Positions 14,638 through 60,817 of a DNA stretch of 64,000 bases are shown in pieces; the first letter of the stretch is position 1, and every line of letters begins with the position of its first letter. A program made the position numbers and the translations under genes. The notes beneath the pieces were generated by a model, which was not told the origin of the DNA, made no database searches, and was given only the letters and a program-made list of their open reading frames with translations. The DNA is taken from the NCBI GenBank assembly GCA_035290865.1, contig DATDTM010000018.1, forward strand, positions 11,763 through 75,762. Direction: 5' to 3'. Origin of the DNA: Candidatus Nanoarchaeia archaeon. GTDB lineage: Archaea > Nanobdellota > Nanobdellia > Woesearchaeales > GW2011-AR9.

Positions 14638-14790
14638 AAAAAATCCCAATCGCAGCATACGCGAACCTGCTGATTCCCTAGTTGCTTATCAGCAACAGCT
14701 GCAGGGTATTTTTAACCTCAAATGGTATCTATTCGTTGGTTATTTCTGCCGTTGCAAGCAACGGGGTATAATACCCATTTGAGGAATTAA
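14638..14790 (+). repeat. structured intergenic repeat, copy 1 (subtype A): shared 75-nt 5' module plus a long 3' hairpin
   Basis: 5' module aaaatcccaatcgcagcatacgcgaacctgctgattccctagttgcttatcagcaacagctgcagggtatt is shared with copies at 53116, 53869 and 60754. 3' arm cctcaaatggtat ... atacccatttgagg forms a 13-bp stem. Internal palindromes gttgct/agcaac and gttgca/agcaac. Confidence 0.8.
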
Positions 14791-14806
14791 TTATCTTTCT
14801 ATAAAT

Positions 14807-16252
14807 TCATCTAAAAGTCTTAAAAGCATATCTAGTCAAGTACTTTAATAAGTAACGATAAGAGGCATTAATATGATGCCTATTGGTGAAATAAATATCC
14901 GAAAACTTCCAGATAATTCGATACCCAACATTATCGGGTATCTTTAATAATATTTTTTTAATGAAAGGCCGCAAGAACGGAAATTTAATGTAAAAATGAC
15001 AAAAGCGTGATAATCTTAATATTTTCTGCCCTTCTTCATCCTTCCGAAAACAATCGTAAAAGTTTAAAGTCTTATTTCCAATCAAATCTCCGCCGATAAG
15101 TTTAGGATCGTACTGGCCAATGGATAAGCCATATTCGGTGATGTCTAGTTTGGGGAAAGGCTTAAAAATATTTCCTGCACAGATGGTATCTTTTGTAGAT
15201 AATTTTTTTAATAGTACTAAAGTTTCCTCTACCATTTCTAAAGTCTCACCGGGCAAACCCATCATAAACTGATAAGAAACTTTTAAATTATACTTATGCA
15301 GAAGAGCTGCAGCATGCTCTAATTTCTGATTAGAAGTCTGGGTCTTCCTTAGAATTTTCATCCTAAAATTCTCATTTCCAGCCTCAACACCCATCCTAAT
15401 CAGATAGCATCGATTAGTCTCCGAAATCTGTCTACAAAATTCTTCATTAACCTCATTCGCGCAGGCATTAATGGAAAAAGGCAGGTCTATCTTCTCTTTA
15501 TACAGATTTAGGAAATCAGAAAGCCATTTCTGGTTATAGGCTAAAGTGCTGTCGTTAAAGAAAATATTCTTATAGCCATACTTATTCTTAAGTATTAATA
15601 TTTCTTCAATTACCCTTTCCGGCTCTCTTAAGCTGCAATATTGCTTGCTCACCGGAAAGTACATCTCCCGGTACTTATGGTTGAAACAATAAGAGCAGTT
15701 ATAAGGACATCCTCTCCCCACCATTACCTGAACGAATTCTATATCCCGGAAATAGCGGTATTTTCTATAAATCTCCTGATCGTCAAAAGGCCGCTTATTC
15801 AAGTCAACAAAAGGAGCCAGCTCGTTTTTGATGATTTTATTTCCTTTCCTGACCCAAAGGTTCTGAATCCGGGAATGGTCCTTTTTCCCAGTCAGACAAT
15901 TACATAATTCTATCAAGGCCTCGTTGCCCTCACCACGGCAGAGAACATCAATATCTTTATTCTGCTCAATCATCTCCGGAAAAAAAGAGCAGTCGTATCC
16001 TCCTATGACAATAAGCACGGGCCATTTTTTCTCTTTTATCCTTCTGGCTATACGCAGCATAAAATTCCGATGAGAAGTAGTTATGGGGAAAGCTACAATT
16101 TCTGGCTTAATCCGCTTAATCTCCTCTAAAAGATAAGCATCTTTACCGATAGCGATATCTGTGCTATGCCCAGCTTTTTTAAGAGAAGCAGAAAGGTTCA
16201 TCACCCCCTGATAAGGGAACCAGATTTCCTGTAAAAATAATACTTTGACCAT
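14807..16252 (-). CDS. B12-binding radical SAM enzyme (second class-B rSAM)
   Basis: N-terminal B12-binding-like domain, then VGRGCPYNCSYCFNH. Confidence 0.8.
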   Translation of the reverse strand: MVKVLFLQEIWFPYQGVMNLSASLKKAGHSTDIAIGKDAYLLEEIKRIKPEIVAFPITTSHRNFMLRIARRIKEKKWPVLIVIGGYDCSFFPEMIEQNKDIDVLCRGEGNEALIELCNCLTGKKDHSRIQNLWVRKGNKIIKNELAPFVDLNKRPFDDQEIYRKYRYFRDIEFVQVMVGRGCPYNCSYCFNHKYREMYFPVSKQYCSLREPERVIEEILILKNKYGYKNIFFNDSTLAYNQKWLSDFLNLYKEKIDLPFSINACANEVNEEFCRQISETNRCYLIRMGVEAGNENFRMKILRKTQTSNQKLEHAAALLHKYNLKVSYQFMMGLPGETLEMVEETLVLLKKLSTKDTICAGNIFKPFPKLDITEYGLSIGQYDPKLIGGDLIGNKTLNFYDCFRKDEEGQKILRLSRFCHFYIKFPFLRPFIKKILLKIPDNVGYRIIWKFSDIYFTNRHHINASYRYLLKYLTRYAFKTFR

Positions 16253-16409
16253 GGAAAATATACCTTTTTTTCAGAGAAATATCCCTCAGGTTAGTATTAT
16301 ATAAAGATTCTGGTTTTGAAGTCCATAGGATAATTATTGATTAACCAGACCGTTTGAAACAATCTCTTATTTCAATACTTTTAAATAACCCAATTAATAC
16401 GAATTTAAA

Positions 16410-58301: not shown

Positions 58302-59144
58302 ATGTCCACTGAACCAGAATTCTTCTCGGAAACTAAATTAGCGATAAAAGCTGCCCTTAACGCAGGAAAAGAAGTGTTAAAGATTTATAATAGTGAATTT
58401 ACAACCACTTACAAAAAAGATACTACTCCAATAACAGAAGCCGATCTAAAGAGCAATGAAACCATTATCAAAATTCTGGAATTATCCGGATATTATCTGC
58501 TTTCCGAAGAGAATATTAAGGATAATTACATTGAAAACCTTCCTCAGAAAACCTCCACAAAATTCTGGGTAGTAGATCCGCTTGACGGAACTGCTGATTT
58601 CATAAATAAAACCGGGGAATTTGCAGTAATGATCGCTTTGGTTGAAAACAGAAAACCAATTTTGGGAGTAATCTATCAGCCGGTCGGAGATCGATTATTT
58701 GTAGCTCAAAAGAATAGCGGAGCTTTCTTTAAAGATAAAGAGAATTGGATTAAACTAAAAGTGAATACTCTGGATAAACTTAAAGAGAGTAAAGCAGTAG
58801 TAAGTAAAAACCATTTAGAAGAAATTGAGAAAGATTTCTTGGATATTGTCGGTATCTCAAGTTTCAGTCAAAAAGGGAGCTGCGGGCTGAAAGTAGCGGA
58901 AATCTGCCAGCAAAAAGCGGAATTATATTTTACCCGAACCAATAAAATCAAAATCTGGGATACGGCTGCGGCATATTGCTTGATAATTGAAGCTGGTGGA
59001 AAAATGACAGATATGCTTGGTGAAGAGTTAAATTATGATTTAGCGGAAATTTATCATCAAAAGGGGGTGTTGGTGAGCAATGGAATAATTCATGATGAAG
59101 TTAGTGAACAATGGTCAATATTTCTAGAGGAGAACACTAATTAA
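58302..59144 (+). CDS. cysQ: inositol-monophosphatase-family phosphatase, CysQ-like 3'(2'),5'-bisphosphate nucleotidase
   Basis: WVVDPLDGTADFI, WDTAAA. ATG 1 nt after the fusion-gene TGA (translational coupling). Confidence 0.7.
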   Translation: MSTEPEFFSETKLAIKAALNAGKEVLKIYNSEFTTTYKKDTTPITEADLKSNETIIKILELSGYYLLSEENIKDNYIENLPQKTSTKFWVVDPLDGTADFINKTGEFAVMIALVENRKPILGVIYQPVGDRLFVAQKNSGAFFKDKENWIKLKVNTLDKLKESKAVVSKNHLEEIEKDFLDIVGISSFSQKGSCGLKVAEICQQKAELYFTRTNKIKIWDTAAAYCLIIEAGGKMTDMLGEELNYDLAEIYHQKGVLVSNGIIHDEVSEQWSIFLEENTN

Positions 59145-60597
59145 ACTTTAATATCCTTTTAATAAAATCAAAGTCTTCTGGATTAAATTCCCGGAATAAA
59201 AATAGAATAAAAAGATAGACGATTATCAAAACACTATATTGTACTATGAGCCAGAATCCGCTGCTTTTCCAGATTAGGCCCAAGAGGAAGATAAAAGCTG
59301 AGGCGAAAATAATATTTAACAGAGAATTAAAAGGTAAAGTAAAAGAAAGCTTATGATGAACATAAATCCCTGAAATTAAAGCAGTTAAAAACATGGTAAT
59401 CAAGAGAGAGTAAGCGGCACCAATCAAGCCAAAATTACGGGTAAAGATTAAATTCAATGAAAATAAAAAGAATAAAGCTGCAATTCCAATAAATAGTTCC
59501 ACTTTTGGTTTACCTAGACCAATAATAACCCCCATAAAACTAGTCATAATTATTAAGAAAACTGAAGATACAATTAAAATATTTAGAACTGTTCCCGCAG
59601 AAGAATATTCTAAAGGATAAAATAAGGTAACTAATTGGATGGATGTAGGAACTACTAAAGCCACGATCGGAATTAAAATAAGTAAGAGGTAACGAAAAGA
59701 ACCGGAGACATACTTTTGAGCTAAAGAAAAGTTCTGTTCGGAAACCGCTTTGGAAATGGAAGGGATCAAGGTAAAAAACAAAGAAGCGAAAATTAGAATC
59801 GGAACATTGGCAAAAGTATTTGCAGCAGTATATATAGCTACTTGCAAATTGTCCTGAAGAAAAGACTTAACCAGCAGTAGATTAACGTTTCTAAGCAGAG
59901 ACAAAATTAGAGATGAGGCGATTAAAGGCAGAGAGAAATAAAATAATTCTCTCAGGCAATCTTTTTGTTCTGACTGGCGGACAGGAAGAGAAAGAACATT
60001 TTTTTTATTTTCATTTAATATTAATATAACTAAAATTAAAGGGATTAGAATAGACAAAATTAACCCGGCCAGAAATCCATATAATTTAAAACCAAGTAAG
60101 ACAAAAACAGAAGTAAAAAAAGCTTTTAAAGCCACATGGATAACACTGATCAAAGCTTGTTTTTTAAACATCCGAAGGCCGTTCAAGTAGCCGGTCCAGT
60201 GCAAAGATAGTAAAGTGAAAGGGATTATAATCAAACCCATAAAGATTAAATAGGACTTTAATCCTAAATCTCCCAGCAGCCAAGAAATCTGGTCCACAAA
60301 TAAAAGATAAATCAGAGTAAAGATAAGAGATAGGGACAATTGGAGTTTTAAAGAAGAATTAGTTATGGAAAGATAAGAAAACTTTTTCTCGGCAATAAAC
60401 TTAGAAACAGCGCTGGTCATCCCAGTACTTAAAAAAGTGCCTAGAATCATGTAAACTGAAATTAAGACTCCGAAAATACCATATAATTCCGGGCTCAATT
60501 TATGGGCTAAAAAGACATGCAAAAAAAAATTTGCCCCTAAAGTGGCCATTCCTGCCAGAATCAGATATACAGTTCCCATTCCCATAACCTTGGTCAT
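59137..60597 (-). CDS. polysaccharide flippase, MOP superfamily (Wzx-like), second copy
   Basis: 486 aa, ~14 TM. Confidence 0.7.
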   Translation of the reverse strand: MTKVMGMGTVYLILAGMATLGANFFLHVFLAHKLSPELYGIFGVLISVYMILGTFLSTGMTSAVSKFIAEKKFSYLSITNSSLKLQLSLSLIFTLIYLLFVDQISWLLGDLGLKSYLIFMGLIIIPFTLLSLHWTGYLNGLRMFKKQALISVIHVALKAFFTSVFVLLGFKLYGFLAGLILSILIPLILVILILNENKKNVLSLPVRQSEQKDCLRELFYFSLPLIASSLILSLLRNVNLLLVKSFLQDNLQVAIYTAANTFANVPILIFASLFFTLIPSISKAVSEQNFSLAQKYVSGSFRYLLLILIPIVALVVPTSIQLVTLFYPLEYSSAGTVLNILIVSSVFLIIMTSFMGVIIGLGKPKVELFIGIAALFFLFSLNLIFTRNFGLIGAAYSLLITMFLTALISGIYVHHKLSFTLPFNSLLNIIFASAFIFLLGLIWKSSGFWLIVQYSVLIIVYLFILFLFREFNPEDFDFIKRILKFN

Positions 60598-60753
60598 TTT
60601 TAAAGTTAAATTCTACTCTTGGTCACTCTGGTCATAATAAAAAAGCGGTTAAACGCTTTTTAAATCTTCTCACAGATGGTTCTATAATTAGAGACACTTA
60701 GTAAATTAAAACTATTCTTTTAAAAAAAAGCAAGAAGCATTCTAATCGTAAAT

Positions 60754-60817
60754 AAAAAATCCCAATCGCAGCAAGCAACGGAGTATAATACCCATTTGAG
60801 GAATTAAATACTTTTAA
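60754..60817 (+). repeat. structured repeat, copy 4: internally deleted subtype-A element (first ~25 nt joined to last ~40 nt)
   Basis: aaaaaatcccaatcgcagca|agcaacggagtataatacccatttgaggaattaa. Deletion junction at the short repeat gca/agcaac. Confidence 0.7.

Follow-up and report, generated by a model that had tools for sequence, protein, structure and literature searches.

Insertion sequences (ISs) of the IS200/IS605 group, such as IS608 and ISDra2, carry a Y1 HUH transposase, TnpA, by means of which IS605-type transposons move as single-stranded DNA (ssDNA): they bear subterminal hairpins, insert beside a specific short sequence without duplicating it, and, because they transpose as ssDNA or on the lagging strand, have copies with a bias to one strand. 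A single-copy Y1 enzyme, the REP-associated tyrosine transposase (RAYT), is also thought to move the short, abundant extragenic palindromes known as REPs (repetitive extragenic palindromes) and their composites, the bacterial interspersed mosaic elements (BIMEs) and the REPINs, with possible effects on termination or mRNA; nested palindromic repeats are further represented by the Rickettsia palindromic elements and the double-hairpin elements of fungal mitochondria. Here we describe a family of short, strongly folded repeats present in a 64,000-nt stretch of a Candidatus Nanoarchaeia archaeon (positions 11,763 to 75,762 of contig DATDTM010000018.1, assembly GCA_035290865.1; this whole stretch is called the window below), and compare it above all with the palindrome-associated transposable elements (PATEs) of Haloquadratum walsbyi. 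PATEs are IS200/IS605 (IS605-type) derivatives without inverted terminal repeats or target duplication; their similar near-terminal palindromes can be exact direct repeats (22 bp in HqIRS46) and are invaded by small mobile repeats, loss of their core through a deletion mediated by repeats leaves 52-bp terminal-only forms (HqIRS46/ISHwa23), and a conserved terminal oligonucleotide acts as a targeting sequence (Dyall-Smith et al. 2011, PMC3119063). Only the IS200-type subclass of Y1 enzymes is known in archaea, and RAYTs have been reported only from bacteria (PMC6006769).

Our analysis indicates, with a probability that we put at about 0.7, that the repeats are a non-autonomous, hairpin-ended family of mobile DNA, PATE-like or IS200/IS605-like, of the Nanoarchaeia/Woesearchaeota (DPANN). 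The element reads 5'-AAAAAATCCC...AAT-3'. Its four copies in the window, found by reading and alignment and with their ends fixed from empty sites, are the following, together with the open reading frame (ORF) that two of them flank:

14638-14787, plus strand: copy 1, type A, 150 nt, flanked by rpe and a B12-radical-SAM gene, each on the minus strand
14638-14649, plus strand: left end of copy 1, AAAAAATCCCAA
14658-14696, plus strand: core hairpin 1 of copy 1, 39-nt loop insert; the GGGTAT tail ends at 14709
14716-14728 with 14771-14784, plus strand: stem P3 of copy 1
14750-14769, plus strand: core hairpin 2 of copy 1 plus GGGGTAT, with the terminal AAT at 14785-14787
53116-53268, plus strand: copy 2, type B, 153 nt, intergenic, at the point where a GT2 gene (minus) and the MTHFS gene (plus) diverge
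53116-53127 with 53196-53207, plus strand: stem P1 of copy 2, 5' arm AAAAAATCCCCA and partner TTGGGATTTTTT
53128-53187, plus strand: core hairpin 1 of copy 2, TCGCAGC ... GCTGCG, then GGGTAT
53136-53174, plus strand: 39-nt loop insert of copy 2, which folds by itself into two 5-bp hairpins
53210-53265, plus strand: unit 2 of copy 2, with stem P3 formed by TCTTAACTGGGTA (53210-53222) and TACCCAGTTAAGA (53253-53265)
53232-53251, plus strand: core hairpin 2 of copy 2 plus GGGGTAT, enclosed by stem P3
53318-53944, plus strand: 5-formyltetrahydrofolate cyclo-ligase (MTHFS) ORF, 208 aa, of which residues 184-208 and the stop (53867-53944) come from copy 3
53869-54021, plus strand: copy 3, type B, 153 nt, inserted in the last codons of MTHFS, with 3 mismatches to copy 2
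60754-60804, plus strand: copy 4, 51 nt, a terminal-only form with left end, chimeric core hairpin and type-A right arm

All four copies that an initial annotation had proposed are thus present, and in one orientation, as judged from sequence reading, alignment and a shuffle control: a 27-mer of its 75-nt module has three matches in the window against none in 100 shuffles, and a repeat finder connects the four sites through families of 85, 158 and 54 nt. The module itself, which that annotation took to be common to all, is found at full length in only three copies. Likewise, copies 2 and 3 do bracket MTHFS as near-identical direct repeats, 753 nt apart and differing at 3/153 positions, with a length of 153 rather than the 155 nt first given. 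The element fragments assemblies of the window's population: many of them yield contigs of 750-1400 nt that hold MTHFS only and end in the flanking repeats (L098-L106; loci are cited by L numbers throughout). Such short contigs, many of which stop at these repeats, are what a collapsed or duplicated repeat in the assembly could leave behind. An artefact of this kind can be practically discounted, given that the flanks beyond the two repeats are unlike, that the repeats differ at three positions, and that independent assemblies of several samples agree on the arrangement; contigs identical to the window occur in Rifle aquifer metagenomes.

That the family is mobile is shown by unoccupied sites, by insertions nested in one another and by the many identical copies that other genomes contain. 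The loci L085/L086 and L087 share synteny with the window but have no element where copy 2 and copy 3 stand, and the junctions are exact. At copy 2 the empty site reads ...TTTAAATAAT/CTAAGTATCATAACC and the filled site ...TTAAAATAAT, the element (AAAAAATCCCC...GTTAAGAAAT) and CATAGTATCATAACC; once 5'-AAAAAATCCC..AAT-3' is removed, the filled and empty sites align without indels for copies 2 and 3 alike. Excision of copy 3 restores, in frame, ATT GAA ATC AAT AGA AGC CAG TAA (IEINRSQ and a stop), and this stop aligns with the TAG-TAA of the orthologue. Conversely, copy 3 gives MTHFS its codons 184-208 and stop (KNPNRSIRESADSLVAYQQQLRGI). The initial claim that it supplies the end of this ORF holds, at 25 codons rather than 24 when the ATA junction codon across the insertion point is counted: the five closest orthologues (58-80% identity, 189-192 aa) have no such tail and end in RIIEIQRKDKK or similar, and a search of the same 90% cluster for a tail-less MTHFS allele found none. 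A further insertion difference is provided by a divergent member on the minus strand of L087 (8519-8609; left end AGAAAATTCC..., core CACAGC-AA-GCTACG, then GGGGTAT), which is flanked by the GT2 and PK/ATP-sulfurylase genes; neither the window (55880-55981) nor L085 has an element at this position. Nesting is reciprocal: L011 has another hairpin repeat inside the element and L053 the element inside that repeat, and copy 4 of the window interrupts a hairpin that is found intact elsewhere in L087.

The hairpin split by copy 4 is AT-rich (CGTAAAT, then, past the copy, TAAATAC..ATTTATTTACG; 60743-60753 plus 60805-60829), with its 5' arm as the interrupted part, and a related intact one, CGTAAATAAAG..CTTTATTTACG, stands downstream of MTHFS in L087 (about 6590-6625). 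These genomes thus seem to harbour a second small palindromic repeat, which may be terminator-like.

A single ORF bracketed by two near-identical folded direct repeats also brings to mind an integron-type gene cassette between attC-like recombination sites, all the more as the type-B arms TCTTAAC...GTTAAGA resemble the R''/R' boxes of attC (RYYYAAC/GTTRRRY). Yet MTHFS is a resident gene, lying between the same neighbours (GT2, FolD) in the relatives L085 and L087 without either repeat; only the repeats were inserted, and they are hence not part of a composite unit. Moreover, elsewhere the copies stand singly and dispersed, without arrays or a recurrent neighbour protein such as an integrase, and the AAC/GTT boxes are missing from most arm variants. 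We therefore find a cassette scarcely credible, and copies 2 and 3 are independent insertions at adjacent intergenic sites.

The spread of the family was surveyed by scanning one genome per species with the exact 21-nt left end TAAAAAATCCCNATCGCAGCA. This retrieved 78 stretches, of which 77 fall in about 25 metagenome-assembled genomes (MAGs) with titles naming Woesearchaeota, Nanoarchaeota, Nanoarchaeia or just "archaeon", or "uncultured Methanosarcinales" for some binned assemblies; the 78th, in a Planctomycetota MAG, has no element-like continuation, and the same left end has no matches in the IMG/VR viral contigs. Copy number can be high: the window has about 4 copies per 64 kb, and in ETNP3_MAG_14 there are more than 20 that match perfectly over 99 nt and whose surroundings all differ. 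All 65 of the 65 copies analysed for position are intergenic or clip a few terminal codons, and with the element taken as plus, the neighbouring genes are arranged -/- 18 times, +/- 15 times, +/+ 14 times and -/+ 10 times, so there is no preferred orientation relative to transcription. All-against-all clustering of the 977 ORFs of the 78 loci revealed no protein that recurs beside the element, and literature searches found no description of the family.

Across genomes the canonical element consists of two units, each with a core hairpin of about 23 nt (ATCGYAGC-A(G)A-GCTRCG-GGGTAT), and the two core hairpins are direct repeats of each other. Unit 1 comprises AAAAAATCCCAA, the core TCGCAGC-A(G)A-GCTGCG-GGGTAT and a stretch ending in TTGGGATTTTTT; unit 2 comprises a variable arm, the core TCGYAGC-A(G)A-GCTRCG-GGGTAT and the complementary arm, followed by AAT. 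The first core hairpin begins 13 nt from the left end, and from the end of the second to the right end of the element there are about 25 nt. A long stem, P1 or P3, surrounds each of them and pairs the adjacent terminus with internal sequence, which places the two termini side by side. Type A pairs its left end, AAAAAATCCC, directly with GGGTATTTTT, located after the hairpin; hence the closure of the 5' end that had been noticed in type B (53116-53127 with 53196-53207) is real and is shared by type A. Folding likewise bears out the two alternative long-hairpin 3' arms described at first: type B folded as RNA has z = -6.0 on the plus and -6.4 on the minus strand, and ssDNA folds range from z = -4.3 to -7.9, the latter being the canonical type B copy. 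Runs of T6 follow stem P1 on the plus strand and stand at the left end on the minus strand. The core stems vary in sequence (CGCAGC, CGTAGC, CATAGC, CGTTGC, CACAGC and others), with no fixed GTAG head.

The 75-nt module of the window copies is unit 1 with a 39-nt insert inside the loop of the core hairpin. Other MAGs have the same hairpin bare or with different inserts at the same loop, so that the module does have a conserved left end and hairpin and is at the same time a composite; one equivalent insert elsewhere shows compensatory stems (GAAAC/GTTTC for GAATC/GATTC, GTTTC/GAAAC for GTTGC/GCAAC). Eight copies measure just 51-54 nt (copy 4 of the window, L017, L031, L049, L053, L054, L065 and L076) and consist of the left end, one core hairpin and the right arm. 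These terminal-only forms arise by deletion between the two core hairpins: in copy 4, rightly read in the initial annotation as an internally deleted type A, the core is a chimera in which the 5' half of core 1 is joined to the 3' half of the type-A core 2. The modular 5'/3' composition remarked on there thus comes down to two hairpin units, loop inserts and recombination between the shared core hairpins.

Insertion is precise: A[A/G]T precedes the element and YAA comes after it. On the left, the first flanking base is A in 80/82 copies and the second is A in 68/82 or G in 13/82; the third, T, was set by the search pattern, and A[A/G]T as a whole stands in 81/82. On the right, the bases beyond the terminal AAT are Y in 53/64, A in 62/64 and A in 57/64. 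Terminal inverted repeats are absent: in every subfamily AAAAAATCCCAATCGCAGC, at the left end, is dissimilar to the right end when this is reverse-complemented (ATTTCTTAACTGGGT..). In the main family AAT stands on both sides and leaves a 3-nt ambiguity. A subfamily of 13 copies, drawn from at least 5 MAGs, begins after AGT and still has AAT as its right end, from which it follows that no target is duplicated; its AGT pairs with an internal ACT and lengthens stem P1. A 3-bp AAT duplication is ruled out by this AGT subfamily, and a TAA or AA duplication by the indels or frameshift that it would need at the empty sites. As the element itself ends in AAT, its insertion recreates the target, and four tandem pairs occur (L007, L023, L064 and L071), all four head to tail. 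Among neighbouring non-adjacent copies, 13 of 16 pairs, the window's four copies included, share a strand (two-sided binomial p about 0.02). The GC skew of the window follows gene orientation and gives no replication signal.

These ends bear on whether the family could be a conventional MITE (miniature inverted-repeat transposable element) moved by a DDE transposase, with AAT as a 3-bp duplication and the long stems as internal inverted repeats. The main family does have AAT on each side, its empty sites are reproduced by removing the element plus one AAT, and an ORF for an rve-type DDE transposase lies in the window (47667-48539). In addition, a MITE-Tracker survey reported a Woesearchaea genome with 105 MITEs per Mb, without the anatomy of the present family (PMC11602168). 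We nevertheless consider such a MITE distinctly unlikely: the two termini are not mutual inverted repeats, a duplication cannot systematically yield AGT on the left and AAT on the right in 13 copies from at least 5 MAGs, AAT does not vary with the insertion site, and the conserved YAA is on one side only. Furthermore, the rve ORF and the element are unrelated in sequence, and the syntenic L087 lacks the region of this ORF. Of the initial suggestion of a MITE-like mobile structured element, the mobility is therefore upheld by the empty sites, the nesting and the identical copies, and the MITE in the strict sense is not.

Returning to the PATE-like or IS200/IS605-like reading, the element would move as folded ssDNA, and a Y1 HUH enzyme (IS200-type TnpA) supplied in trans would cut and rejoin it beside its subterminal hairpins. 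This model would account for site-specific insertion without duplication, for the strand sharing of neighbouring copies and for the head-to-tail tandems. The link to a Y1 transposase is one that we infer from these properties of the element.

The stems were further examined for covariation. A covariance model, R1, built from eight type-B copies recovered 49 copies at E < 1e-4, those with divergent left ends included. Over 47 distinct sequences, 91.3% of the cells are paired as against 77.7% in shuffles, although the alignment was fitted to R1 and its counts lean towards structure; with the same proviso, both sides have changed in 25/36 pairs, and the covariation score is 0.301 against 0.092 in shuffles (0/500 reach it) and 0.025-0.057 with slid partners. 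The arm variants are plain in the raw sequence: CTTAAC/GTTAAG, CCTCAAA/TTTGAGG, TATTTAGTT/AACTAAATA, CTTGCT/AGCAAG, and CTCGAAC/GTTCGAG versus ATCGAAC/GTTCGAT. Core 2 also shows compensatory changes (GC 29 / AU 13; UA 19 / CG 18; AU 28 / UA 15). Non-Watson-Crick cells number 19 G.T (1.2%) and 47 A.C of 1550, and in the two helices free of the collection constraint 7 G.T and 23 A.C. Selected RNA helices normally tolerate G.U far better than A.C. Since G.T is here the rarer of the two and pairing is almost purely Watson-Crick, the pattern points to constraint on the stems at the level of DNA rather than RNA.

The same data speak to a second family of explanations, in which the repeats are structured non-coding RNA genes or a host cis-element kept for its function, such as a bidirectional terminator or an mRNA-stabilising hairpin, in the manner of REP/BIME. 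A multi-helix architecture kept with many compensatory changes across about 25 species, the strongly negative folding z-scores, the T6 runs on the two strands and the placement of every copy at a gene boundary would all be in keeping with this. We regard it as unlikely all the same. The whole window has no Rfam match (Rfam 15) at gathering thresholds, copies 2 and 3 scoring only at chance level (E > 2), and ARAGORN found no tRNA or tmRNA in it. Copies are sense and antisense to their neighbours equally often, and 10 lie between divergent gene starts; because the left flank varies, the element carries no upstream promoter. A simple terminator scan flags no copies, and A.C mismatches outnumber the G.U-type cells. 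One genome with more than 20 identical copies, together with orthologous sites that are occupied in some genomes and not in others, speaks for recent transposition and not for conserved genes. The other option raised by the initial annotation, a family of small structured RNAs, is disfavoured by the lack of an Rfam match, the random orientation to genes and the almost purely Watson-Crick stems. It is possible that a host function was gained secondarily.

Compared with the described systems, the element has most in common with PATEs. Both are too short for a transposase and lack inverted terminal repeats and target duplications; both have similar near-terminal palindromes, which can be in direct orientation, with small repeats inserted in them; both undergo core deletion to a terminal-only form (52 bp in PATEs, 51-54 nt here); and both have a short conserved oligonucleotide at the junction, a sequence conserved across genera and a mobilisation that is hard to link to an intact TnpA. 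They differ in that PATEs have haloarchaeal hosts, as opposed to the DPANN hosts here, and there is no sequence similarity between them. The present element also has conserved flank bases on both sides of its insertion point, and no full-length IS605-type transposon with the same palindromes was found for it among the 78 left-end loci or by comparing a covariance model of its right module (R2) with one IS200 family. With the IS200/IS605 group it shares subterminal hairpins in place of inverted repeats, the lack of duplication and a short specific insertion sequence, but it has neither tnpA nor tnpB. Like REP/BIME/REPIN repeats, it is short, abundant, extragenic, organised as modular mosaics and conserved in structure while its stem sequences covary. 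However, REPINs are inverted REP doublets, in contrast to the direct-repeat core hairpins here, a conserved GTAG or CGTC head is missing, and no RAYT-like gene flanked by the element's repeats was seen. With MITEs, the Rickettsia palindromic elements and those of fungal mitochondria it has in common that it is small, non-coding, highly structured, multi-copy and prone to nesting, and, as with classical MITEs and nested palindromic repeats, it occasionally gives codons to a host ORF, as copy 3 does; unlike these, it lacks terminal inverted repeats and target duplications and sits at the extreme 3' ends of ORFs, never inside.

A search for the enzyme with phmmer, using as query an IS608 TnpA sequence, uncovered two Y1 genes, one in L059 and one in L036, at no more than about 1 kb from a copy. 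The L059 TnpA has 612 relatives at E < 1e-10, many of them named Woesearchaeota or Nanoarchaeia; IS200-type tnpA genes are thus common in these archaea, which counts in favour of a PATE-like element by offering a candidate enzyme. The local IS200 family, delimited from two different insertion sites plus two further loci, has the organisation 5'-AATGAYAYACTCCCAAAATAAATC-hairpin-GGGGTTTC ... tnpA ... TCCTCCC-hairpin-GGGTATCC...GATTTTAT-3' (its 5' start being also given as AATGAYAYACTCCC), with further ORFs after tnpA in several loci. Its likeness to the element is confined to the generic combination of hairpin plus GGGTAT and to a similar distance of 23-25 nt from hairpin to right end, and in L059 a copy of the element begins exactly at the right end of the IS. 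Homology between the two is not claimed, as it finds no support in shuffled alignments or in model R2. A zinc-ribbon filter for TnpB-like ORFs returned two ORFs, neither recognisable as TnpB, and none of the 78 left-end matches is an autonomous copy.

Several observations weigh against a PATE-like, Y1-mobilized element. Among about 70 complete copies, none encloses or adjoins a transposase gene and no neighbour protein recurs; the Y1 tnpA genes of L059 and L036 belong to ISs with their own, different hairpins; model R2 has no significant hit at the IS200 ends (best E = 5), and local alignment to the IS200 left end is no better than for shuffles. Long covarying stems that run from a terminus to internal sequence have not been described for PATEs or IS200/IS605. 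The conservation of the left end is partly due to collection, because most copies were found with the exact left-end pattern, and the strand-sharing statistic is small (13 vs 3). The indications as to the active strand also disagree: the YAA on the right and the AGT subfamily fit insertion on the bottom strand, 3' of TTRATT, a model that agrees with the flank logo and with A.C being slightly commoner than G.T on the top strand, and that conflicts with the geometry of the local IS200 ends, since the hairpin-to-end distance of about 25 nt matches the IS200 right end on the top strand. ISDra2, for its part, reportedly inserts 3' of TTGAT.

A more specific alternative would make the family an archaeal counterpart of REP-RAYT, that is, a long-lived, vertically inherited population of hairpins served by one immobilised Y1 TnpA (e.g., in L088-L091), with P1 and P3 as a built-in synapse. 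These stems would set the two cleavage sites side by side in the folded ssDNA, a "self-synapsing" substrate design of which we know no description for IS200/IS605, PATEs or REPINs. The candidate enzyme, P0135 (4001-4558 in L088-L091), is an IS200-type TnpA and one of the 612 relatives of the L059 protein; its gene occupies a single fixed position in those Rifle samples that also contain the window, with the same gene context in all four loci shown, and 8 further places are similar. It keeps the left-end hairpin of the IS, the homology to that family stops at its stop codon, and the passenger ORFs and right-end hairpin are absent; P0135 may be a stranded or domesticated transposase. No copy of the element lies within 4 kb of this solo tnpA in L088-L091. 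We treat a REP-RAYT counterpart as a tentative and rather improbable proposal; were it true, it would place a RAYT-type system in archaea, where none is known so far, with a new substrate design.

If PATE-like features as such are known, what distinguishes the present family is the covarying pair of stems that sequesters both termini and its wide conserved spread in streamlined genomes: it is prolific in very small DPANN genomes, and about 25 species-level genomes, of groundwater, marine and other origin, have one and the same left end. The element also alters annotation, by adding a foreign tail of 25 residues to MTHFS and by placing T6 runs on both strands between genes. Model R1 can be used to mask the repeats, to flag chimeric ORF tails and to mark lineage-specific insertions, and the element offers a concrete substrate for the study of Y1 or other ssDNA enzymes in uncultured archaea.

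Some further observations concern the neighbourhoods and the interior of these elements. On a Woesearchaeota contig (L092, about 1400-1500 and 3180-3260) a near-identical stretch of ~55 nt (..CTATGAATGTAATGAATTTGTTTTTGTTTTCGAGCGCTAGTGAGAA..) flanks an IS200 element on both sides, which is unusual for a family that makes no duplication and might stem from a tandem or a circle junction, or from the IS having inserted into a repeat. In the window, 47667-49889 hold the rve ORF mentioned above (rve/HTH_28) and an MFS transporter gene (48708-49889), between a 661-aa gene and a PMT_2 gene; as the latter two are adjacent in the syntenic L087, this ~2.3-kb segment is a lineage-specific insertion, unrelated to the hairpin element. 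In L040 (minus strand), directly 3' of a 259-nt copy, the sequence GGGTAACCGCCGAGATTTGAACTCGG... abuts the right end of the element and resembles the 3' part of a tRNA gene on the opposite strand, so the copy looks as if inserted directly beside a tRNA gene. Hairpins of 20-30 nt, typically CA...TG, are nested inside the elements of L067 (5490-5560), L016 (around 2925-2975), L070, L024, L059 and L060, with two tiny ones in L067 in the sequence GGGGGTA^TTAG, each followed by TA; they look like a further layer of miniature insertions or hairpin expansions. Finally, the family copy of L074 (minus strand, around 5270-5620) has received a palindromic element of ~190 nt. Its terminal inverted repeats measure 16 nt (GTACGTATTAAGTTTA), a direct duplication of 8 bp (TGCGAAGT) accompanies it, and, unlike its host element, it is a true MITE.

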